Made by a program: the position numbers and the translations under genes | Notes under the pieces: generated by a model | Databases searched by the model: none | Seen by the model: the letters and a program-made list of their open reading frames with translations, nothing else | What the model was told of the DNA's origin: nothing | Shown: positions 6,113-29,428 of the stretch, one piece after another | Layout: each line of letters begins with the position of its first letter | Position numbering within the stretch: position 1 is the stretch's first letter | IMG/VR virus record: IMGVR_UViG_2917881069_000004 | Source of the DNA: a virus | Taxonomy: Duplodnaviria > Heunggongvirae > Uroviricota > Caudoviricetes | Strand: one strand, 5' to 3' | Length of the DNA stretch: 31,007 nt

Positions 6113-8522
6113 GTCATGACGATATGAGCAACTCTAGCGGCTTTAACGAGGCCGCAGCAGCATTTTCATGGAACGGCCCGAAAAAGGCCATTAACCCTTA
6201 TCTGGACCCGGCGGAAGTTGCGCCGGTTTCTGCGCTTTCAAACCTGATCACTCTGTACGCTGCCGATAACGAGCAGGAACAACTGCGCCGCGAGGCACTG
6301 AGTGATCAGGTCTGGGAGCGTTATTTCTTTAATGAATCCCGTGATCCTGTCCAACGCGAAATGGAGCAGGATAAGCTCATTAGCCGGGCAAAGCTGGCGC
6401 ATGAGCAGCAGCGTTTTAATCCAGATATGGTCATTCTGGCGGACGTCAATGCCCAGCCTTCCCATATCAGCAAGCCGCTGATGCAACGTATTGAATACTT
6501 CAGCAGCCTGGGCAGGCCAAAGGCTTATTCCCGCTATTTGCGTGAGACGATTAAGCCATGTCTGGAACGACTGGAGCATGTACGCGACAGTCAGCTATCC
6601 ACTTCTTTTCGCTTTATGGCAAGCCATGAAGGGCTGGACGGCCTGCTGATCCTGCCTGAAATGAGTCAGGATCAGGTGAAACGCTTGTCTACCCTTGTCG
6701 CTGCGCATATGAGCATGTGCCTTGATGCAGCTTGTGGCGATTTGTATGTCACCGATGACGTTAAGCCAGAAGAAATCCGCAATACATGGGAAAAGGTGGC
6801 AGCGGAAACCCTGCGTCTGGATGTCATCCCGCCTGCGTTTGAGCAACTCCGCCGGAAAAGAAACCGCCGTAAACCCGTGCCCTATGAACTCATTCCGGGT
6901 TCGCTGGCGCGTATGTTGTGCGCTGACTGGTGGTACCGGAAATTATGGAAGATGCGTTGCGAATGGCGGGAAGAGCAGTTGCGTGCTGTCTGCCTGGTCA
7001 GCAAAAAAGCATCTCCCTATGTCAGCTATGAAGCCGTGATGCATAAACGTGAGCAGCGCCGTAAGTCGCTGGAGTTTTTTCGTTCTCATGAACTGGTGAA
7101 CGAAGACGGCGACACGCTGGACATGGAGGATGTGGTAAACGCCAGCAGCAGCAACTCTGCGCATCGCCGCAATGAGATGATGGCCTGTGTTAAAGGCCTG
7201 GAGCTTATCGCGGAAATGCGCGGTGACTGCGCCGTTTTCTACACCATCACCTGTCCGTCACGTTTCCATTCCACGCTAAATAACGGCAGGCCCAACCCGA
7301 CCTGGACAAATGCGACGGTAAGACAAAGCAGTGATTATCTGGTCGGCATGTTTGCTGCATTTCGTAAGGCGATGCACAAAGCCGGATTGCGCTGGTATGG
7401 CGTGCGGGTGGCTGAGCCGCATCATGACGGTACAGTTCACTGGCACCTGTTGTGTTTTATGCGCAAAAAAGATCGCCGCGCCATTACTGCTTTGTTGCGT
7501 AAGTTTGCCATTCGTGAAGACCGCGAGGAGCTGGGGAATAACACGGGACCACGCTTTAAGTCTGAGTTGATTAACCCGCGCAAAGGAACGCCGACAAGCT
7601 ACATCGCGAAATATATCAGCAAGAACATTGACGGGCGTGGTCTGGCTGGCGAGATCAGCAAGGAAACGGGTAAATCTCTGCGTGATAACGCTGAATACGT
7701 TAATGCCTGGGCGTCTCTGCATCGTGTTCAGCAATTCCGCTTCTTTGGTATTCCGGGGCGTCAGGCTTACCGTGAACTGCGATTGCTGGCTGGTCAGGCG
7801 GCAAGGCAACAGGGCGACAAAAAGCAGGTGCGCCGGTACTGGATAACCCGCGCCTTGATGCCATCCTGGCTGCTGCTGATGCTGGTTGTTTTGCCACTTA
7901 CATCATGAAGCAGGGTGGTGTACTGGTTCCCCGCAAATATCACCTCATCAGAACTGCTTATGAAATTAACGAAGAGCCGACCGCCTATGGCGATCACGGC
8001 ATTCGTATTTATGGCATCTGGTCACCCATTGCAGAGGGCAAGATCTGCACTCATGCAGTGAAGTGGAAAATGGTTCGTAAAGCCGTTGACGTTCAGGAGG
8101 CGGTAGCCGACCAGGGCGCTTGCGCCCCTTGGACTCGTGGCAATAACTGTCCCCTTGCTGAAAATTTGAACCAACATGAGAAAGATAAATCAGCAGACGG
8201 GGATACCAGAACGGACATTTCCTGCATGGATGACAAGGAATTGCACGATTACCTGCACAGTATGGGCAAAAAAGAGCACCGGGAACTGGCAGCAAGATTA
8301 CGCCTGGTTAAACCGAAACGGCGTAAAGACCACAAACAGCGAATTACAGACCATCAGCGTCAGCAGCTCGTCTATGAACTGAAGTCCAGAGGATTTGATG
8401 GCAGCGAGAAAGAAGTCGATTTACTGCTTCGTGGCGGCAGTATTCCGTCAGGAGCAGGCCTGCGTATCTTCTATCGGAACCAGCGTTTGCAGGAAGATGA
8501 TAAGTGGCGGGATCTGTATTAA
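6109..8522 (+). CDS. A: Rolling-circle replication initiator (P2 gpA-like); apparent 1-nt frame shift near 7810-7820
   Basis: HUH-type motif [10 protein letters not shown]. Track ORFs 6109..7908 and 7905..8522 are continuous in sense (..QGDKK / [32 protein letters not shown]..) if the A5 run is A6. Confidence 0.8.
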
Positions 8523-8865: not shown

Positions 8866-8898
8866 GCTTGTTTCGTTAGGACTTGATAAGGGAACCGA

Positions 8899-8919
8899 AA
8901 AGGGGCATTAAGCCCCTTT
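8899..8919. terminator. Bidirectional hairpin between convergent genes
   Basis: AAAGGGGC-attaa-GCCCCTTT, an 8-bp stem, between the stop of 8677..8865 (+) and the stop of 8933..9232 (-). Flanking U-tracts are short. Confidence 0.45.
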
Positions 8920-8932
8920 CTCATAAGTTGAT

Positions 8933-9232
8933 TTAGTTGTTCCCCAAAGAGCCGGCCATGGCTGCATATTTAATTTCTTCGCTGGGTATTTCAGGATGTA
9001 GTTGAATTTGCCTGATGACATAGCCAGGAACTTCGTCACTCCACAGTTTCGCCGCGTCCTTACAGACCTTATACGCGAAGTCTCTATTCTCAAAGGCATA
9101 GGATTTTCCGTATGCATATTGCTGACAGGCATGAACATAAGCTCCGAAGTCGCCGTCTTTATCTGGCAAAGCACATCCAGCCAAGGCTATGATGATTGCT
9201 ACTAACGTAAAGGAGAAAGTTATACGTTTCAT
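8933..9232 (-). CDS. Small lipoprotein (99 aa), unknown function
   Basis: Signal peptide with lipobox LAGC (MKRITFSFTLVAIIIALAGC..). Located in the A-Q variable island. Confidence 0.65.
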   Translation of the reverse strand: MKRITFSFTLVAIIIALAGCALPDKDGDFGAYVHACQQYAYGKSYAFENRDFAYKVCKDAAKLWSDEVPGYVIRQIQLHPEIPSEEIKYAAMAGSLGNN

Positions 9233-9340
9233 GGTCTCTTTCTAAGCGTTTAGCATTATTTAACTAAGGGGTATCTGCCGTGATTTGGTAGTCCCTGATA
9301 TATATTCTCAGGGACTATGCTGAAGTAGCTTTAATTTCGA

Positions 9341-10147
9341 TTATTTAGAAAGGTACTTATCTCTAAGTTGATTCAGTCTGTCAGCATCGCGTTCTGAAAA
9401 CTCGGCGTCACCATAGATCGATTTCCCATCTGCGTCTTCAAGGCCAATGACTGTGACGGTAAATATAGCATCAGCCGGAACTTTAAGTTTTCCCCAATCA
9501 GAGTATCTATTAGGGGCTAATTTCCAGTTGGCTTTCTCACCTGGTTCCAGACCTCCAGAAATTTTATAGTTGAAGACGTCAGAGAACCAAGGGACGCTTC
9601 TTCCTGGACTGGCAATAACTCCTTTGAAGAATACTCTGGCAACCGCTTTGTCTGTTCCGTTTTCAACGCTAATATCCAGAATTGGCTGATCATTGCCGTA
9701 ATCCTCTTTCTGGAAATAAAAACGGGAACGTTCGACCTTGAAGGCTTTCATTTTTTCCGCAGCCTGTGTTGCAGAGGTTTGTTTGGCTTCCAGTTCTTTT
9801 ATTTCTTGCAGAGCCTGTTCTTTCTCTCTCTTCTCACGCTCAAGGCGAATAGTTTGTGCGTAATTTATAACCTCATCACCAGTTTTACCTTCCAACGCTG
9901 ACTTAATTTTTGTTTCGTAGACGTCCCCAGAAGACGTTCCAGCCTGCATTAGCTCTCTCATGTTGATTTGGCTAAAGGCAACGACTTTAACTGCATCATC
10001 AAACTGAGCTTTTTTATCTGCAGGTAAGGACTCTCTTACTTTTTGAATGGACTCTTTCATCGACTGATCGCTTGATGCATCGATCTTCGGTTTGTCACAA
10101 GCAGTAAGCAGCAGAGCAAAAGCAATTACGCCAGTTAATTTCTTCAT
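9341..10147 (-). CDS. Lipoprotein (about 267 aa), unknown function
   Basis: Track ORF 9341..10219. The likely true start is the internal ATG at 10147 (MKKLTGVIAFALLLTAC, lipobox LLTAC), because the upstream extension is the translation of a hairpin plus T-run. Central Lys/Glu-rich predicted coiled region. Confidence 0.65.
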   Translation of the reverse strand: MKKLTGVIAFALLLTACDKPKIDASSDQSMKESIQKVRESLPADKKAQFDDAVKVVAFSQINMRELMQAGTSSGDVYETKIKSALEGKTGDEVINYAQTIRLEREKREKEQALQEIKELEAKQTSATQAAEKMKAFKVERSRFYFQKEDYGNDQPILDISVENGTDKAVARVFFKGVIASPGRSVPWFSDVFNYKISGGLEPGEKANWKLAPNRYSDWGKLKVPADAIFTVTVIGLEDADGKSIYGDAEFSERDADRLNQLRDKYLSK

Positions 10148-10161
10148 ATCCCTATCCCAAT

Positions 10162-10197
10162 CGTAAAAAAACAAGGCTAATCCTAACAGGATTAGCT
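10162..10197 (-). terminator. Terminator-like hairpin plus U-tract in the leader of the lipoprotein gene
   Basis: On the minus strand CTAATCCT-gtt-AGGATTAG (perfect 8-bp stem) is followed by CCTTGTTTTTTT, 15 nt upstream of the ATG at 10147. A candidate -35/-10 pair (TTTATA-17-TATGAG) lies just upstream. Confidence 0.5.
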
Positions 10198-10662
10198 GGC
10201 ATGACAAACTCATAGCCATATAGGTGTGCTGTATAAATTAGCGGGATGAGAAAGCCTGCGCAGCCCCTCATGTTGAAACTTGATTTTAGCTCAAAAGAGC
10301 TGACACTAAATAACTGCGCGGAATAATGCTCCACTTTCGGTTAGCCCTTGCTGGGTAAGGCGTGGGGCCGTTTTCTTCGCCTGATCCTGCTGTATCTGGC
10401 CTACAGTATGTTGCCCTTACGCGACATGCCACATGTCAGTAAACGGCAGGTGTAGCAGTATTAGACGCAGCTATTTAGTGTGTATTAAGCTGGCTCATAT
10501 TTATGACTGGTTTCAAGGTTTGACCGATTTTCATGTCATGCATGTCTATGCTGCATGAGTTCGCATGATCGTTTGAGGATCGGTTTGGCTAAGACATGCC
10601 AGAACTGGCGGGCTTTTGCTCATGTCATGCAGGTGCATGAAAACCACTACATAAAGCGGGCA

Positions 10663-10681
10663 GGCGTGGCGGGGATACGAG
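10663..10681. other. cos site (cohesive-end region)
   Basis: GGCGTGGCGGGGATACGAG resembles the 19-nt cohesive ends of P2 (GGCGAGGCGGGGAAAGCAC) and 186 as recalled. Correct position between the variable island and portal gene Q. Confidence 0.6.
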
Positions 10682-10770
10682 CGCGCGCAACGGGGTAAAA
10701 TGGCCAAAATCCGGCACAGCCTCTGGCCCGCTGGCGGCCTCATTTAGTGGAGGGGGGGCGATGTCAGGGC

Positions 10771-10806
10771 AAAAAGAAACGCCCCGCAGAATGCTGCTGA
10801 GGCGTT
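10771..10806 (-). terminator. Possible terminator of the leftward P-Q late operon
   Basis: AACGCC / GGCGTT arms with an internal GCAG/CTGC mini-stem, followed on the minus strand by a T-run; about 40 nt downstream of the Q stop. Loop is long, so weak. Confidence 0.3.
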
Positions 10807-10841
10807 GTGAGAGTTGGTCGGTTATTGATGTTATGAGTATG

Positions 10842-11885
10842 TCAGCTTCGTTTGCCCTTAAGTCCTAAGTCATAGGCTTCAAAACGGATAACCTCTTCAT
10901 CCAGCCAGTCATTCAGCTCCTGCAGTCGCTTTTGCAGGGGCATCAGTTCATTGCGGACGAAGACACGGCTCGCTTTTTCCACATCCCCAAAGCCGCCAGT
11001 GTTGTTGGGAATGATGCCCATCATTTGCGGCGGTACGCGGTGAGCCGCCATCATGTCATCGCGGCTGACGTTCTTGATGTTCAGAAATTCATCCTTCGCC
11101 GCGACTTCCGACAACGGGATAATCTGAATGCCATCTTTTTTGCCGTTAGGCGAGTACATAAACAGGTTGCGGAAGTTGCCCGGTCCTTTAGCACTTTTCA
11201 TTGCCTTGCGGATGTTGTTCACATCCTCCTGGTTCTGTGCGGCGTCGGTCATGTACATGATGAAGCCTGCGTGGCTGCCGTTAATGTAATACTTGCGGCG
11301 GAACAGCGTGGCGGATTCGTTGAGCAGAGCTGACGGAATGGCAGAAAGGTAACCCGGCAGACCATAAATCTCCTGGTTGATATCCGGCTCCATCAGGTGG
11401 AAGACGTTACCTTTTGTGAACTGATACGGCTGTGTCGTCAGGCTGTATTGCACAAACCAGTATGTTTCAAGGTCAAGCCCGCGTCGGGTGTATTTTGCCA
11501 GTGCAGGCTCCAGCGAAATAACTTCACCAAAGCGGTTCGTGCGTTTCTCCAGGTAGGCGTTACCAAAAACCAGATAGTCCTGCACAAAACGGGTAAATGC
11601 CTGCTGGCTGAGAAGGCGATGTGGAATATAGGTACTGCTGATAATGTCACGCTTAACACTGATCGGGGAGCTGTGGTGCACGGCGGCGCGGAAGGTGCGC
11701 GCCAGTCCGTCAAAGCTGACGGGTGGCTCATACCAGCGATCCATCTGTACGCATTCCACATAGTCCAGCAGTTCGCGGCGGTCCAGTACAGGAATGGGAT
11801 CACCAAAGCTGAAAGCCTCCGCAACGGGTTTTTTAGTTTCTTCTGCAGTTACGGTTTCGCCTGGCGCGATATGTTCTTTCATCAA
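10842..11885 (-). CDS. Q: Portal protein (P2 gpQ-like)
   Basis: 347 aa (P2 Q is about 344 aa). Start overlaps the terminase stop. Position next to cos. Confidence 0.85.
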   Translation of the reverse strand: MMKEHIAPGETVTAEETKKPVAEAFSFGDPIPVLDRRELLDYVECVQMDRWYEPPVSFDGLARTFRAAVHHSSPISVKRDIISSTYIPHRLLSQQAFTRFVQDYLVFGNAYLEKRTNRFGEVISLEPALAKYTRRGLDLETYWFVQYSLTTQPYQFTKGNVFHLMEPDINQEIYGLPGYLSAIPSALLNESATLFRRKYYINGSHAGFIMYMTDAAQNQEDVNNIRKAMKSAKGPGNFRNLFMYSPNGKKDGIQIIPLSEVAAKDEFLNIKNVSRDDMMAAHRVPPQMMGIIPNNTGGFGDVEKASRVFVRNELMPLQKRLQELNDWLDEEVIRFEAYDLGLKGKRS

Positions 11886-22091: not shown

Positions 22092-23491
22092 GCACAAAAT
22101 TTTATACCCTGCTGACGGAGATTGGTGCGGCGAAACTTGCCAGCGCCGCCGCGCTCGGTGTGCCGCTTAAAATTACCCATATGGCGGTGGGGGATGGTAG
22201 TGGAGCATTGCCGACGCCGGACGCAAAGCAGACTGCACTGGTAAATGAGAAACGCCGGGCTGCGCTGAATATGCTCTATATCGACCCGCAAAACAGCAGT
22301 CAGATTATTGCTGAACAGGTGATCCCTGAAAACGAGGGCGGTTGGTGGATACGTGAAGTGGGACTTTTTGATGAGTCAGGGGCATTGATTGCCGTGGGCA
22401 ACTGCCCGGAAAGCTACAAGCCGCAACTGGCTGAAGGCAGCGGGCGCACCCAGACTGTGCGCATGGTGCTGATTACCAGCAGCACGGAGAATATCATCCT
22501 GAAAATCGACCCTGCCGTCGTGCTGGCAACCCGCAAGTATGTGGATGATAAGGTACTGGAGCTGAAGGTGTACGTGGATGACCTGATGGCAAAACATCTT
22601 GCCGCACCGGACCCGCATTCACAGTACGCGCCAAAAGCCAGCCCGACGTTTACCGGAACCCCCAAAGCGCCAACTCCAGAGGCAGGGAATAACACCACGC
22701 AGGTTGCGACCACCGCGTTTGTTCAGGCGGCACTGCTCACCCTGATTGACGGTGCGCCAGCCACGCTGGACACGCTGAAAGAAATTGCAGCTGCTATTAA
22801 TAATGACCCGAAATTCAGTACCACCATTAACAATGCGCTGGCACTCAAAGCACCGCTGTCGAGTCCTGCACTCACCGGAACGCCAACAGCACCTACTGCG
22901 GCACAGTCGGTCAACAATACACAGATTGCCACCACGGCTTTTGTGAAATCGGCAATTGCGGCAATGGTGGGTTCTGCACCTGCGGCACTGGATACGCTGA
23001 ACGAACTGGCGGCGGCGCTGGGGAATGACCCGAACTTTGCCACGACAATGCTCAATTCGCTGGCGGGAAAACAACCGCTGGATAATACGCTGACTAATTT
23101 GAGTGGAAAGGATGTTGCTGGTCTTCTCGCATACCTTGGTTTGGGAGAAGCGGCAAAACGGGATGTGGGAACGGGGGTAAATCAGATACCGGATATGAGC
23201 TTTCAGGGTTATGGGCCTAATTGGGTCAAAACTGTAGGTGGAATGATTATTCAAAAGGGATCGCTGGGATTTAGTATTGGTTCAAATCTATCAAGCACTA
23301 CATTTCCGATCGCGTTTGCTTCAGGGGCAGTAGTCAATCTAACGTGGTCTGACGTCACGTCAGGTGGCGCAGCTCCGGGGACTACAATGTCTTATGGAAT
23401 AGTCGTGGGGTCACAAACCAGGACAGGTTTTCAGGCCTGGATGAGTGGTGCCGGTGGATTCAACCTCTCATATATAGCTGTGGGGTATTGA
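22088..23491 (+). CDS. H: Tail fibre protein (P2 gpH-like)
   Basis: 467 aa. N-terminus MSTKFYTLLTEIGAAKLASAAALG is typical of P2-family fibres; internal tandem motifs (PTFTGTPKAPT..TTAFVQAAL / PALTGTPTAPT..TTAFVKSAI). Confidence 0.85.
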   Translation: MSTKFYTLLTEIGAAKLASAAALGVPLKITHMAVGDGSGALPTPDAKQTALVNEKRRAALNMLYIDPQNSSQIIAEQVIPENEGGWWIREVGLFDESGALIAVGNCPESYKPQLAEGSGRTQTVRMVLITSSTENIILKIDPAVVLATRKYVDDKVLELKVYVDDLMAKHLAAPDPHSQYAPKASPTFTGTPKAPTPEAGNNTTQVATTAFVQAALLTLIDGAPATLDTLKEIAAAINNDPKFSTTINNALALKAPLSSPALTGTPTAPTAAQSVNNTQIATTAFVKSAIAAMVGSAPAALDTLNELAAALGNDPNFATTMLNSLAGKQPLDNTLTNLSGKDVAGLLAYLGLGEAAKRDVGTGVNQIPDMSFQGYGPNWVKTVGGMIIQKGSLGFSIGSNLSSTTFPIAFASGAVVNLTWSDVTSGGAAPGTTMSYGIVVGSQTRTGFQAWMSGAGGFNLSYIAVGY

Positions 23492-23919
23492 TAATGAAAT
23501 ACAGATATTCTGGCGAGACAAATTCTTTTTATCCCTGGGCATTATTTGATGATTACACGCGAGTTAATGCATGGCCTGAAAATGGGGTGGATGTTGACGA
23601 AGATATTTTTACGGAATATAGCGGCACACCGCCAGAAGGCAAAACTCGCGGCCCGGATGTTAATGGGAAACCATCATGGATAGATGCACAGCCACCATCT
23701 AAAAAAGAACAAATTATCGCTGCGGACTTTCAGAAATCAGCATTACTGGCGGAGGCAACGGCGATTATCGCCCCACTGGCAGATGCTCAGGCAGGAGGCT
23801 ACATCGACGATGTTGACGTGCCACGTCTGGCTGAATGGCAGCGGTACCGCTACAAACTGACTAAAGTCGATACCAGTACCGCGCCTGACATTACCTTTCC
23901 ACCGAAGCCGGAGGTGTAG
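23488..23919 (+). CDS. G: Tail fibre assembly chaperone (P2 gpG-like)
   Basis: 143 aa with C-terminus ..YRYKLTKVDTSTAPDITFPPKPEV, typical of Tfa chaperones. Confidence 0.8.
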   Translation: MIMKYRYSGETNSFYPWALFDDYTRVNAWPENGVDVDEDIFTEYSGTPPEGKTRGPDVNGKPSWIDAQPPSKKEQIIAADFQKSALLAEATAIIAPLADAQAGGYIDDVDVPRLAEWQRYRYKLTKVDTSTAPDITFPPKPEV

Positions 23920-24028
23920 GCCATTTGATATCTGGTGCGATGGTCGTATCTACCACCTCAAGCGCATCCAGATAATCTGGCCATGTATAGAAAATTTCCG
24001 GCAAATAAGAGCAATGAATCGCCCTGAA
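23894..24028 (-). pseudogene. Remnant of an inverted second tail-fibre-assembly gene (C-terminal 45 codons, no start codon)
   Basis: Minus-strand open frame reads ..LPEIFYTWPDYLDALEVVDTTIAPDIKWPTPPASVER, parallel to the C-terminus of G (VDTSTAPDITFP). It converges tail-to-tail on G and overlaps its last codons. Confidence 0.5.
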
Positions 24029-24169: not shown

Positions 24170-25341
24170 ATGGCTCAGGATTACCACCACGGGGTGCGCG
24201 TTGTTGAAGTCAACGAAGGCACCCGATCCATTACCACGGTGAGCACCGCCATCGTGGGTATGGTCTGCACGGGCGATGATGCCGATGCAAAAATGTTTCC
24301 TCTTAATAAACCCGTGCTGATCACTGATGTACTGACCGCCAGCGGTAAAGCGGGTGAGTCCGGCACGCTGGCCCGTTCGCTGGATGCCATCGCTGACCAG
24401 GCAAAACCCGTGACCGTTGTTGTGCGTGTGCCGCAGGGTGAAACGGAAGAAGAAACCACGACCAATATCATCGGCGCAGTGACTGCTGAAGGTAAAAAAA
24501 CAGGCATGAAAGCCCTGTTATCTGCCCAGACACAGCTCGGCGTTAAACCGCGCATTCTCGGCGTGCCAGGTCACGATAACAAAGCCGTTGCTACTGAGTT
24601 GCTGAGTGTGGCGCAAAGCTGCGTGGGTTTGCCTACCTGTCAGCGTATGGCTGCAAGACGGTACAGGAGGCGATCACTTACCGTGAAAACTTCAGCCAGC
24701 GCGAAGGAATGCTGATCTGGCCTGACTTTACTGGCTGGGACACGGTGCTGAATGCCGAAGCAATGGCATATGCCACCGCTCGTGCGCTTGGTCTGCGTGC
24801 CAAAATTGATGAGCAGACCGGGTGGCACAAAAGCCTGTCCAACGTGGGCGTGAACGGTGTCACCGGAATTTCTGCAGATGTGTTCTGGGATCTGCAGGAC
24901 CCGGCAACCGATGCAGGTCTGCTGAACCAGAACGACGTCACCACGCTTGTGCGTAAAGACGGGTTCCGCTTCTGGGGTTCCCGCTGTCTGAGCGATGATC
25001 CGCTCTTTGCCTTCGAAAACTACACCCGCACGGCGCAGGTGCTGACGGACACAATGGCAGAAGCGCATATGTGGGCGGTGGACAAACCGCTGAACCCGTC
25101 GCTGGCCCGCGACATTATCGAAGGTATCCGCGCCAAAATGCGCAGCCTGGTCAGTCAGGGCTATCTCATTGGTGGTGATTGCTGGCTGGACGAGTCGGTG
25201 AATGACAAAGACACGCTGAAAGCCGGAAAACTCACCATCGATTACGACTACACGCCAGTACCGCCACTTGAAAACCTGATGCTGCGTCAGCGCATCACCG
25301 ATCAGTACCTGGTGAATTTCTCCAGCCAGGTAAGCGCGTAA
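24170..25341 (+). CDS. FI: Tail sheath protein (P2 gpFI-like); apparent 1-nt frame shift near 24616-24620
   Basis: Track ORFs 24170..24715 and 24709..25341 sum to about 390 aa (P2 FI is about 396 aa). The frame is restored if caaag is caaaag (..[41 protein letters not shown]..). Confidence 0.8.
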
Positions 25342-25350
25342 GGGGGCAAC

Positions 25351-25866
25351 ATGGCTTTACCACGTAAATTAAAACACCTGAACCTGTTTAATGACGGGAA
25401 CAACTGGCAGGGGATCGTTGAGTCGCTGACGCTGCCGAAATTCACCCGCAAATATGAGAAGTATCGCGGCGGCGGAATGCCGGGTGCGGTGGATGTGGAT
25501 CTGGGGCTGGATGACGGCGCACTGGATACTGAATTTTCCATTGGCGGTACTGAGCTACTGCTGTTTAAGCAGATGGGCAAAGCTACGGTGGATGGCATCC
25601 AGCTGCGCTTTACCGGCTCTATCCAGCGTGACGATACCGGGGAAGTGCAGGCCGTGGAGCTTGTAGTGCGTGGACGTCACAAAGAAGTGGATTCCGGCGA
25701 GTGGAAGACGGGCGAAAGCAACACCACCAAAGTGACCAGTACCAACAGCTACGCGAAGCTGACCATCAATGGTGAGGTGCTTTATGAAGTGGACCTTATC
25801 AACATGGTGGAAATTGTGGACGGTGTGGACCTGATGGAAGCGCACCGCAACGCCCTCGGCCTCTGA
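25351..25866 (+). CDS. FII: Tail tube protein (P2 gpFII-like)
   Basis: 171 aa directly after the sheath gene. Confidence 0.85.
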   Translation: MALPRKLKHLNLFNDGNNWQGIVESLTLPKFTRKYEKYRGGGMPGAVDVDLGLDDGALDTEFSIGGTELLLFKQMGKATVDGIQLRFTGSIQRDDTGEVQAVELVVRGRHKEVDSGEWKTGESNTTKVTSTNSYAKLTINGEVLYEVDLINMVEIVDGVDLMEAHRNALGL

Positions 25867-25920
25867 TGTATCTGAACGGCGCGGATTGCCGCGCCAGAAC
25901 CCAATTTACAGGACAACAAA

Positions 25921-26223
25921 ATGAGCGATAAGCAGACTGAAAAGACCATTCAACTGGATACTCCCATCATGCGCGGTAAAACAGAAATTACCGAAATTGT
26001 GTTGCGTAAACCGCAGTCCGGTGCGCTGCGCGGCACACGCCTGCAGGCCATTATGGATATGGATGTGAACGCGATGATGACCGTGATCCCCCGCATCTCC
26101 AGTCCGGCACTGACTGCACAGGAAATTGCAGAGCTGGATCCGGCAGATCTCACTGCCATGTCGGTTGAGGTTGTCACTTTTTTGTTGAAGAAGTCGGTGC
26201 TTGCCGGTTTACCGACAGCCTGA
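25921..26223 (+). CDS. E: Tail assembly chaperone E; an E+E' fusion to 26357 is expected by -1 frame shift
   Basis: 100-aa ORF just upstream of the tape measure gene. The -1 frame is open from the slippery site to a stop at 26355-26357, overlapping the T start. Confidence 0.75.
   Translation: MSDKQTEKTIQLDTPIMRGKTEITEIVLRKPQSGALRGTRLQAIMDMDVNAMMTVIPRISSPALTAQEIAELDPADLTAMSVEVVTFLLKKSVLAGLPTA
26178..26184 (+). other. Programmed -1 ribosomal frameshift site (slippery heptamer T_TTT_TTG) for E/E+E'
   Basis: TTTTTTG in X_XXY_YYZ register relative to the E frame, at the conserved position near the 3' end of E. The equivalent chaperone frameshift is established for P2 E/E' and lambda G/GT. Confidence 0.7.
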
Positions 26224-26349
26224 CGGTTGACGATCTGGTGGCTGATATCGCCACCATCTTTCACTGGCCGCCATCCGTTACTGACGTTATGCCGCTGACC
26301 GAAGTGCTGGAATGGCGGTATAAAGCGATTCAGAGAAGCGGGGCCAGCC

Positions 26350-29300
26350 ATGAGTGACAATAACCTGCGTCTGCAGGTGATTCTGAATGCGGTTGACAAG
26401 CTCACCCGCCCATTTCGATCCGCGCAGGCCAGTTCAAGAGAACTGGCTGCTGCTGTCAAAAAATCCCGCGATGCAATAAAGCAGCTTGATCAGGCCGGGA
26501 GCAGTCTGGACAGCTTCCGAAAGCTGCAGGCAGAAAATCAGAAATTAGGCGACAGGCTGAACTATGCCCGCCAGCGTGCAAATTTACTCAGTCATGAACT
26601 GGGATCAATGGGGCCGCCTTCGCAACGTCAGGTTGTTGCTCTGGGCCGTCAACGGCTGGCTGTTCAGCGCCTGGAAGAACGCCAGAAAAAGCTGCAGCAG
26701 CAGACGGCGCTTGTGCGTGCAGAACTTTATCGTGCTGGTATTTCAGCTAATGATGGCGCCAGTGCGACGGCCCGCATTACCCGTGAAACGATGCGTTATA
26801 ACAGGCAGCTTTCTGAGCAGGAAGCGAGGTTACGACGTGTCGGGGAGCAACAGCGAAAAATGCACGCCGCCCGGGGGGCTTACGCCAGGCGTCTTGAAGT
26901 AAGGGATCGGATTGCCGGGGCCGGAGCCACCACCACGGCTGCAGGGCTGGCAATGGGCGCACCAGTGATGGCGGCAGTAAAAAGCTATACCAGCATGGAA
27001 GATGCCATGAAAGGTGTGGCAAAGCAGGTCAATGGTCTGCGTGACGATAATGGCAACCGCACTGCGCGTTTTTACGAAATGCAGGATGCCATCAAGGCTG
27101 CCAGCGAACAGTTGCCGATGGAAAACGGTGCTGTGGACTTCGCCGCACTGGTTGAAGGTGGTGCGCGCATGAACGTCGCAAACCCTGACGACAGTTGGGA
27201 AGACCAGAAACGTGACCTGCTGGCCTTCGCCAGCACGGCGGCAAAGGCGGCAACAGCCTTTGAGCTGCCAGCGGATGAACTGTCAGAAAGTCTGGGGAAA
27301 ATCGCCCAGCTCTACAAAATCCCTACACGCAATATTGAACAGCTCGGTGACGCGCTGAACTATCTGGATGATAACGCCATGTCGAAAGGGGCAGACATCA
27401 TTGATGTCATGCAACGCCTGGGCGGTGTGGCTGACCGTCTGGATTATCGTAAAGCGGCGGCGCTGGGTTCAACCTTCCTGACACTGGGCGCTGCGCCGGA
27501 GGTTGCAGCCAGTGCAGCAAACGCGATGGTGCGTGAATTGTCCATTGCCACCATGCAGAGCAAGAGTTTCTTTGAAGGAATGAATCTGCTGAAACTCAAT
27601 CCTGAAGTGATTGAAAAGCAGATGACGAAGGATGCGATGGGAACCATCCAGCGCGTACTGGAGAAGGTGAATGCGCTTCCGCAGGATAAGCGCCTGTCTG
27701 CCATGACCATGTTGTTTGGTAAAGAGTTTGGCGATGACGCGGCGAAACTGGCAAACAACCTGCCGGAACTGCAGCGCCAGCTAAAACTGACAGCGGGCAA
27801 TGATGCGCTCGGCTCCATGCAGAAAGAATCCGACATTAACAAGGATTCACTTTCTGCGCAGTGGTTGCTGGTCAAAACCGGAGCGCAGAACACCTTCAGC
27901 AGCCTGGGCGAAACGCTGCGCCAGCCGCTGATGGATATTCTGTACACGGTGAAAAGCGTCACGGGGGCGTCGCGTCGCTGGGTGGAAGCTAACCCGGAAC
28001 TGACGGGCACACTGATGAAAGTAGCCGCTGTTGTGGCTGCGGTTACCGTGGGCCTCGGCACCCTGGCTGTGGTGTTGGCTGCAGTGCTGGGGCCGCTGGC
28101 AGTCATCCGTCTGGGATTCTCTGTGCTGGGTATCAAGACGTTACCTTCGGTGACGGATGCAGTAACACGAACCAGCAGCGCGTTATCCAGGCTGGCAGGC
28201 GCGCCACTGGCAGTACTGCGACGCGGGTTTGCTTCATCGGGGAGCAGTGCGGGTTTGCTTACTGCGCCGCTGTTGTCTTTGCGCCGCACGGCATCACTGA
28301 CGGGAAATGCCCTGAAAACTGTGGCAGCTGCGCCTGTTGCACTGTTGCGGTCCGGTTTATCCGGTTTACGTGCTGTTGCCTTGATGTTTATGAATCCACT
28401 GGCGGCACTGCGCGGTGGACTGACTGCCGCAGGTGCAGTGTTGCGAGTGCTGGCATCCGGTCCGCTGGTGATGCTGCGCGTTGCCCTGTATGCCATATCT
28501 GGTCTGTTAGGTGCTCTGCTCAGTCCGATAGGTCTTGTGGTTACTGCACTGGCGGGCGTGGCGCTGGTTGTCTGGAAATACTGGCAACCCATCACCGCAT
28601 TTCTCGGTGGCGTGGTGGAAGGATTCAAAGCGGCGGCAGGTCCCATCAGTGCCGCATTCGAACCACTTAAGCCCGTGTTTCAGTGGATTGGTGACAAAGT
28701 GCAGGCTCTGTGGGGCTGGTTTACTGATCTGCTGACGCCCGTTAAGTCGACCTCTGCCGAACTGCAGAGCGCAGCGGCAATGGGGCGACGATTCGGGGAG
28801 GCGACTGGCAGAAGGGCTGAATATGGTCATGCATCCGCTGGACTCCCTGAAATCCGGCGTTTCCTGGTTGCTGGAGAAACTCGGCATTATCAGTAAAGAG
28901 GCTGCAAAGGCGAAACTGCCGGAAAGCGTGACGCGTCAGCAACCCGCAACAGTGAATGCAGACGGCAAAGTGATGATGCCATCAGGTGGTTTTCCGTCAT
29001 GGGGATATGGCTTTGCGGGGATGTATGACAGCGGCGGGTATATCCCGCGCGGGCAGTTTGGCATCGTCGGTGAAAACGGGCCGGAAATTGTTAACGGCCC
29101 GGCAAATGTGACCAGCCGGAGAAATACAGCTGCACTGGCTGCCGTTGTTGCCGGAATGATGGGCGTTGCTGCCGCGCCAGCAGAGCTTCCACCGTTGCAT
29201 CCTTTGGCGCTTCCCGCGAAAGGCGGCAAAGCGATGGTGAGTCGCGCAGCTACTGTGCCGCCCGTTCACCGGATTGAGGCACCGACGCAGATCATCATCC

Positions 29301-29428
29301 AGACGCAGCCAGGACAAAGTGCGCAGGATATTGCGCGGGAGGTGGCCCGCCAGCTTGATGAACGTGAACGCAGGCTGAAGGCAAAAGCCAGGAGTAACTA
29401 CAGCGATCAGGGGGGATACGACGCATGA
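26350..29428 (+). CDS. T: Tail tape measure protein (P2 gpT-like); apparent 1-nt frame shift near 28790-28825
   Basis: Track ORFs 26350..28896 and 28823..29428 overlap in different frames. The second carries a typical tape-measure C-terminal region (GGYIPRGQFGIVGENGPEIVNGPANVTS). Coiled Ala/Leu/Gln-rich body. Confidence 0.8.

Follow-up and report, generated by a model that had tools for sequence, protein, structure and literature searches.

A probable P2-family recoding site between the tail assembly chaperone genes E and E' of a 186/Fels-2-type prophage

The E-E' locus

The stretch of DNA analyzed here, 31,007 nucleotides (nt) of the IMG/VR virus record IMGVR_UViG_2917881069_000004 (Caudoviricetes) and hereafter called the window, is an almost complete prophage that belongs to the P2 family and is of the 186/Fels-2 type. 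Its tail operon contains gene E, which encodes a tail assembly chaperone, and the overlapping extension E' in the -1 frame. The heptamer TTTTTTG near the end of E is very probably the tail-assembly-chaperone recoding site of the P2 family (Table 1).

The heptamer conforms to the X_XXY_YYZ pattern and is in register with E, as (26178 - 25921) mod 3 equals 2, so that its first T is the third base of an ACT codon and the zero frame reads AC_T TTT TTG (local sequence, gag gtt gtc acT TTT TTG ttg aag). It is the sole in-register heptamer within all of E, which extends from its ATG at 25921 to the TGA at 26221-26223 and has a zero-frame tail of 13 codons past the heptamer. From position 26184, the -1 frame offers 57 sense codons (VEEVGACRFTDSLTVDDLVADIATIFHWPPSVTDVMPLTEVLEWRYKAIQRSGASHE) before the TGA at 26355-26357, which overlaps the start of the tape-measure gene T (ATG, 26350) within ATGAGTGA. 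The predicted fusion coding sequence (CDS), join(25921..26184,26184..26357), specifies 145 amino acids (aa). Since the -1 frame is closed upstream by another TGA, a productive shift from E to E' is confined to positions 26169-26223. The initial annotation had already placed T_TTT_TTG in register near the end of E and had described a 57-codon -1 frame running to a stop that overlaps the T start; every coordinate that it gave was right.

Table 1. Features of the E-E' locus and its surroundings in window coordinates (ORF, open reading frame; SD, Shine-Dalgarno)
Feature	Position	Strand	Basis
Gene E, zero-frame tail assembly chaperone, 100 aa	25921..26223	+	ORF; Pfam; PHROG; third-codon-position polymorphism pattern
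Slippery heptamer T_TTT_TTG, in register with E	26178..26184	+	Sequence; identical in P2; T6 followed by G, A, or C in 88/88 relatives
E', -1 frame extension, 57 codons plus TGA	26184..26357	+	Pfam; PHROG; P2 alignment; polymorphism
TGA closing the -1 frame upstream	26166..26168	+	Translation of the -1 frame
Dual-coding overlap of the E C-terminal tail (frame 0) and the E' start (frame -1)	26185..26223	+	Polymorphism suppressed in all three phases; both translations conserved
SD-like GAGGT, 6 nt upstream of the heptamer, candidate stimulator only	26167..26171	+	Anti-SD duplex, -6.3 kcal/mol
In-frame GTG, used in relatives as the start of a separate 39-aa E' CDS; judged not real	26238..26240	+	Anti-SD duplex at background
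FII, major tail tube gene, directly upstream of the chaperone pair	25351..25866	+	Pfam Phage_tube, 6e-60; ORF intact
T, tape-measure gene, ATG overlapping the E' stop	26350..29428	+	ORFs 26350-28896 and 28823-29428; Pfam PhageMin_Tail; frame broken by a 1-bp insertion at 28803 versus three references

Homology and conservation

Geometry on its own is insufficient to place the E/E' site beyond chance. A scan of both strands for X_XXY_YYZ heptamers preceded by 60 or more open codons, with a zero-frame stop no more than 30 codons away, and leading into 40 or more open -1 codons returned six sites in the window, and the five besides E/E' sit at accidental insertions or deletions (indels) or at gene overlaps. 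The string TTTTTTG as such occurs 11 times in the window. Geometry therefore does not discriminate, and tests of homology and conservation were used in its place; together they do place the site beyond chance. As a side observation, the heptamers AAAAAAG and AAAAAAC at 7003 (+) and 12271 (-) also combine a slippery site with a long -1 ORF, but they lie in genes with indels or overlapping frames, and nothing indicates that they are programmed.

Both halves of the predicted fusion have homologs among phage tail proteins. Gene E matches Pfam Phage_TAC_7 (PF10109; 3.4e-18, 65.9 bits versus a cut-off of 25) and PHROG 103 (2e-43), while the -1 peptide alone matches Pfam Phage_P2_GpE (PF06528; 5.8e-19, 67.7 bits versus a cut-off of 23) and the PHROG tail families 1756 and 6416, with the PHROG 1756 alignment beginning at residue 3 of the peptide. 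BLASTP aligns the predicted fusion with P2 gpE+E' at 48% identity over 141 residues, gapless across the junction (E = 4e-51). The -1 product thus resembles the E' of relatives, without which the initial interpretation would have been untenable. NCBIfam holds no model matching E, E', or the fusion, and a sequence search of the PDB returned no solved relative at E values up to 1.

Conservation was assessed in 88 relatives, i.e., 8 annotated phage records and 80 IMG/VR loci. The latter are close relatives only (82-95% amino acid identity); more diverse phages are represented by P2, ENT90, and vB_YenM_42.18 and by what has been published on phages of Burkholderia and Stenotrophomonas. All 88 relatives carry T6 in register, followed by G (84), A (3), or C (1), and the extension is 57 codons long in 85 of them. 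The codon ahead of the T run is ACT, GGT, or CTT, so that the encoded residue varies (Thr, Gly, Leu) while the final T is constant.

The distribution of polymorphism over codon positions, determined in 69 unique relatives with the same geometry, changes its phase along the locus. Upstream of the heptamer, 71 of 85 third positions of E are polymorphic, compared with 24 first and 14 second positions, whereas past the E stop the peak lies at the third positions of E' (24 of 44, versus 12 and 7 elsewhere). Within the 39-nt overlap, the mean minor-allele frequency is 0.02 to 0.03 in all three phases, compared with 0.21 at the upstream third positions, and both translations, the tail of E and the start of E', are kept across the relatives. 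The pattern is that of a coding-frame switch at the heptamer and of true dual coding in the overlap. The proposal that E/E' is a real programmed shift, to be set against accidental frame changes nearby, is supported by this switch and by the conservation of the heptamer in every relative.

Many records treat E' differently, namely as a small gene of its own that encodes a 39-aa "GpE family phage tail protein" from GTG 26238 and requires no recoding. Examples are NC_049342 gp39, CP019275 BWI89_26590, RefSeq WP_000763312.1, RE-2010, and Cartapus, and the P2 equivalent of the GTG codon is ATG. The GTG is the only in-frame start codon available to E', but it lacks an SD sequence: its anti-SD duplex (-2.5 kcal/mol) equals the background of the window (mean, -2.4 kcal/mol), and the corresponding values for T, FI, and FII are -7.0, -11.0, and -11.2 kcal/mol. 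Furthermore, the 18 -1-frame codons that precede the GTG show protein-level conservation reaching from this phage as far as P2, ENT90, and a Yersinia phage, with E91, G93, L101, D105, and L106 invariant, and the PHROG 1756 alignment likewise begins upstream of the GTG. The in-register heptamer, invariant across the 88 relatives, also speaks against an independent E' gene, and in the P2 literature, E' has no ribosome-binding site and is expressed as an extension of E (PMC3091744; PMC3931495). Frameshifts are beyond what automatic gene callers can model, hence the separate annotation; the 39-aa CDS of many records is a gene-caller artifact, and expression of E' as an independent gene is hardly credible.

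Proposed recoding mechanism

Most ribosomes initiating at the E start would terminate at the E stop and release gpE (100 aa), while a minority would slip by -1 on T_TTT_TTG. In the predicted tandem slip, the P-site tRNA-Phe would move from UUU to UUU and the A-site tRNA-Leu from UUG to UUU, and reading would continue with GUU GAA GAA up to the TGA at the end of E' to give gpE+E'. The junction is expected to read ...VVTF-L/F-VEEVG..., its central residue being presumably Leu or Phe; VVTFLVEEVGACR would be the junction peptide after slippage of the A-site Leu and VVTFFVEEVGACR the alternative. If they act like P2 E/E+E' and lambda G/GT, both products probably have the same N-terminal domain, with which they would coat the tape-measure protein T, and the E' extension, the rarer form, may bring in the tail tube protein. 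The presumed purpose of such an arrangement is to fix the ratio of the two products at the level of translation.

A homopolymeric run is also a substrate for transcriptional slippage, in which RNA polymerase would add one U on T6 and thereby bring E and E' into the same frame in some of the mRNAs. The extra U would yield the same E-E' fusion, with the junction FFV, and the computed results do not separate the two processes. However, bacterial transcriptional slippage normally requires runs of about 8 to 9 or more, for which six is short. The T run moreover starts precisely at the third codon position in every relative, a register that transcriptional slippage would not need, and the P2-type site is called a translational frameshift in the P2 record and in the literature (PMC3091744; PMC3931495). 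Slippage of the polymerase is therefore very improbable as the source of the fusion, and a shift of the ribosome on the heptamer is the preferred explanation.

Several observations weigh against a functional ribosomal shift at this locus. The support for this particular phage comes from sequence comparison. U_UU.U_UU.G is not among the most efficient Escherichia coli heptamers listed by Sharma et al. 2014 (PMC4066793), which makes a low shift frequency plausible, and no significant stimulatory structure was detected downstream by folding, Alifold, or Rfam, so that the efficiency may be low. Finally, FI, T, U, and D carry frame-breaking indels in the sequence as recorded; if these were real, the signal would have no functional consequence in this copy. 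With respect to efficiency, a chaperone pair needs just a small fraction of the long form, and the ratio of G to GT in lambda is about 30:1 (PMC5009743). We infer that slippage takes place in this phage, probably at a low frequency and with a division of labor between gpE and gpE+E'.

Candidate stimulators

The initial annotation had suggested a stimulatory stem-loop or pseudoknot in 26185-26230, and this candidate is rejected. RNAfold was run on 26185-26260 and 26185-26230. The 46 nt directly downstream fold at -13.5 kcal/mol (z = -1.1), and 21 of 200 shuffled sequences were as stable. A weak hairpin begins 8 nt past the heptamer, and a second one (26235-26255), located 51 nt downstream, is too distant to act. 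The equivalent regions of P2 (z = 0.06) and ENT90 (z = -0.01) are not more stable than expected, and Alifold on seven diverse sequences gave a consensus of -6.2 kcal/mol with a covariation term of -0.02, i.e., no conserved structure. A scan of 25300-26800 against Rfam returned no family but only chance-level snoRNA matches with E values around 0.6. The class of -1 sites stimulated by a hairpin or pseudoknot (dnaX/IS3 type) has a stable conserved structure 5-9 nt downstream; none is present here, and the E/E' site lies outside this class. P2 and its Burkholderia relatives have likewise been reported to lack a downstream hairpin (PMC3091744).

Upstream of the heptamer, the SD-like GAGGU ranks roughly in the top 8% of window positions for the stability of its duplex with the 3' end of the 16S rRNA. 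The synonymous third base of the GAG codon within the motif is invariant in the 69 unique close relatives. P2 carries AAGGTGGT at this position, and the motif is missing from ENT90 and vB_YenM_42.18; it could therefore be at most a lineage-specific modulator. Since the heptamer is not listed as efficient and no downstream structure was found, the lineage may depend on unrecognized local stimulators, the candidates being GAGGU and a sequence constraint within the 39-nt overlap. That such elements set the E:E+E' ratio appears rather unlikely and, if so, would add only a minor mechanistic detail to what is known of the system.

Comparison with known systems

In P2, a -1 shift at TTTTTTG produces a 142-aa E+E' in addition to the 91-aa E, and E' has no ribosome-binding site (PMC3091744; PMC3931495). 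The P2 RefSeq record gives E+E' as a two-piece CDS and places a "site of -1 translational frameshift" on the base right after TTTTTTG. The locus described here agrees with P2 in the identical heptamer and its register, the 57-codon extension, the overlap of the E' stop with the T start, the position between FII and T, the homology of both halves, and the absence of a downstream stimulatory hairpin, and the proposed comparison with the E/E' coordinates of P2 thus turned out in favor of the initial interpretation. It differs in the lengths of E (100 versus 91 aa) and the fusion (145 versus 142 aa), in a longer zero-frame tail past the heptamer (13 versus 7 codons), in a DNA identity of about 67% that covers only the 3' half, and in a 186/Fels-2-type immunity region with CI and CII. 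The P2 shift reportedly occurs at roughly 10%. A paper by Christie et al. from 2002 (J Bacteriol 184:6522) reportedly deals with P2 E/E+E' and the FETUD tail operon. Every defining feature of P2 E/E+E' that can be read from a sequence is present in the window. A low, fixed-ratio fusion that is essential for tail assembly has been shown experimentally for P2 alone, as cited in two papers (PMC3091744; PMC3931495).

The similarity is much closer to Fels-2 (88% identity over the E-E' stretch), whose record (STM2699/STM2697.1) already states that gpE+E' arises by translational slippage. Together with Wadgaonvirus, Elveevirus, and Felsduovirus prophages of E. coli, Klebsiella, and Salmonella, it represents a group with 86-98% identical E-E' DNA, the same lengths, and the same heptamer, from which the window differs by few substitutions only; the end of its E' (...GASHE) is common to at least one E. 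coli prophage. More distant P2-like phages of Burkholderia and Stenotrophomonas have conserved T6G, T7G, or T7C sites (PMC3091744; PMC3931495). The E/E' frameshift is hence an already known and ordinary trait of a very common prophage lineage, and none of the open biological questions is advanced by finding it here.

Lambda G/GT is a functional counterpart without homology. It also consists of two chaperones with a common N terminus that result from a low-frequency -1 shift near the end of a gene just upstream of the tape-measure gene, but there is no sequence similarity, and the lambda tail is that of a siphovirus rather than contractile. The slippery sequence of lambda is G_GGA_AAG, and its chaperones have reportedly been studied by Levin, Hendrix and Casjens (1993) and by Xu, Hendrix and Duda (2004, 2013, 2014). 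Neither the G nor the GT product is present in the virion (PMC5009743). E. coli dnaX (A_AAA_AAG, with an upstream SD sequence and a downstream hairpin) shares the tandem -1 slippage of bacterial ribosomes on a heptamer, and the SD-like GAGGU is upstream here as well. However, dnaX needs strong stimulators on both sides, shifts at a very high frequency, and yields a shorter shifted product, whereas the E/E' site has no significant downstream structure, an SD-like element that is not family-wide, and a shifted product that is the longer one.

Prophage context and accidental indels

The left end of the prophage encodes an integrase, CI, CII, and a Dam methylase, followed by replication, head, lysis, baseplate, and tail-fibre genes and by the tail operon with FI (24170-25341), FII, E, E', T, U, and D. 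At 94-96% identity, the records most similar to it are Escherichia phage 500465-1 (Wadgaonvirus), Klebsiella phage KP12, and numerous prophages of E. coli, and about 1,100 of 5,426 complete E. coli genomes harbor a close copy of the tail region. The statement that the chaperone module is organized normally applies to the gene order FII-E-E'-T-U-D, which is that of P2, but not to T, whose frame is broken at 28803 in the sequence as recorded.

Compared with two or three references, the window contains ten isolated 1-bp indels of its own (7819, 12283, 13330, 14353, 17094, 19349, 24619, 28803, 29737, and 29980), which disrupt the reading frames of FI, T, U, D, and several genes for the head and baseplate. 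The last four, located in FI, T, U (T5 to T4), and D, respectively, belong to the tail operon and were established against three independent references. The interval 25351-26537 is free of indels relative to the same number of references, and the heptamer therefore remains in register once the sequence is corrected, contrary to a refuting condition named in the initial annotation. With about 10 indels in every 25 kb, the chance that a 437-bp stretch is spared is near 0.84, and the intactness of E-E' is thus by itself no evidence of selection in this copy.

These numbers bear on the possibility that the signal is a relic, i.e., that the indels are real, the prophage is defective, and the E/E' site has merely not yet been hit. 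The presence of ten window-specific indels, four of them in the tail operon, and the high chance of escape are compatible with such a scenario. On the other hand, the window-specific substitutions show a synonymous excess in all of the tail genes examined (synonymous:nonsynonymous, FI 17:2, FII 7:0, T 71:19, U 9:2, and D 37:8), which indicates that selection was active until very recently. Seven of the ten indels also adjoin the same base, among them two cases of A6 to A5 and one of T5 to T4, as is typical of sequencing errors. On account of the mostly synonymous substitutions and the like-base neighborhoods, the indels are most likely sequencing errors or very recent events, and decay of the prophage is a doubtful explanation. 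It would in any case concern the use of the site in this copy and not the identity of the E/E' heptamer as a P2-family recoding site.

The finding is of use mainly for annotation. The locus is best entered as gpE together with a joined CDS for gpE+E' and not as two genes, and the E/E' frame change should be left uncorrected when the record is cleared of its accidental indels. E/E' can serve as an internal control in this respect, with its register, conservation, and coding-phase switch, none of which is shown by the approximately ten indels of the record.

Neighboring regions

The spacer between FII and E (25867-25920) contains a GC-rich hairpin without a T tail, GGCGCGG-attg-CCGCGCC, at 25878-25895. 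P2, ENT90, and a Klebsiella Gegavirus each have a GC hairpin of differing sequence in this spacer (z, -1.75 to -2.6). The element may be an attenuator or an mRNA stability element that separates the abundant FI and FII products from the low-level products of E-T-U-D.

Between the tail-fibre genes and FI, the window has about 790 bp (23190-23981), compared with about 2.4 kb in its closest relatives, which encode a Hin/Cin-type DNA invertase and alternative tail-fibre segments there. A single tail-fibre assembly gene (23488-23919, Caudo_TAP) is present in the window, and the invertible cassette is apparently missing.

A cargo region (8866-10930), flanked by the replication/DinI genes on one side and the portal gene on the other, bears no relation to the closest phages, where a TIR-domain protein and other genes are encoded at this position. 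It comprises a 292-aa ORF with DUF6694 (9341-10219, minus strand) and a 99-aa ORF, and PADLOC returned no match for the cargo ORFs. This position in P2-like phages is a known hotspot for accessory and defense genes.

A patch in the 5' part of T (26538-26892) departs from all references much more strongly than the sequence on either side of it. In BLAST, the alignments of this segment contain many mutually compensating 1-bp gaps, and the ORF is still open. It looks like a real mosaic or divergent segment and not like an error.

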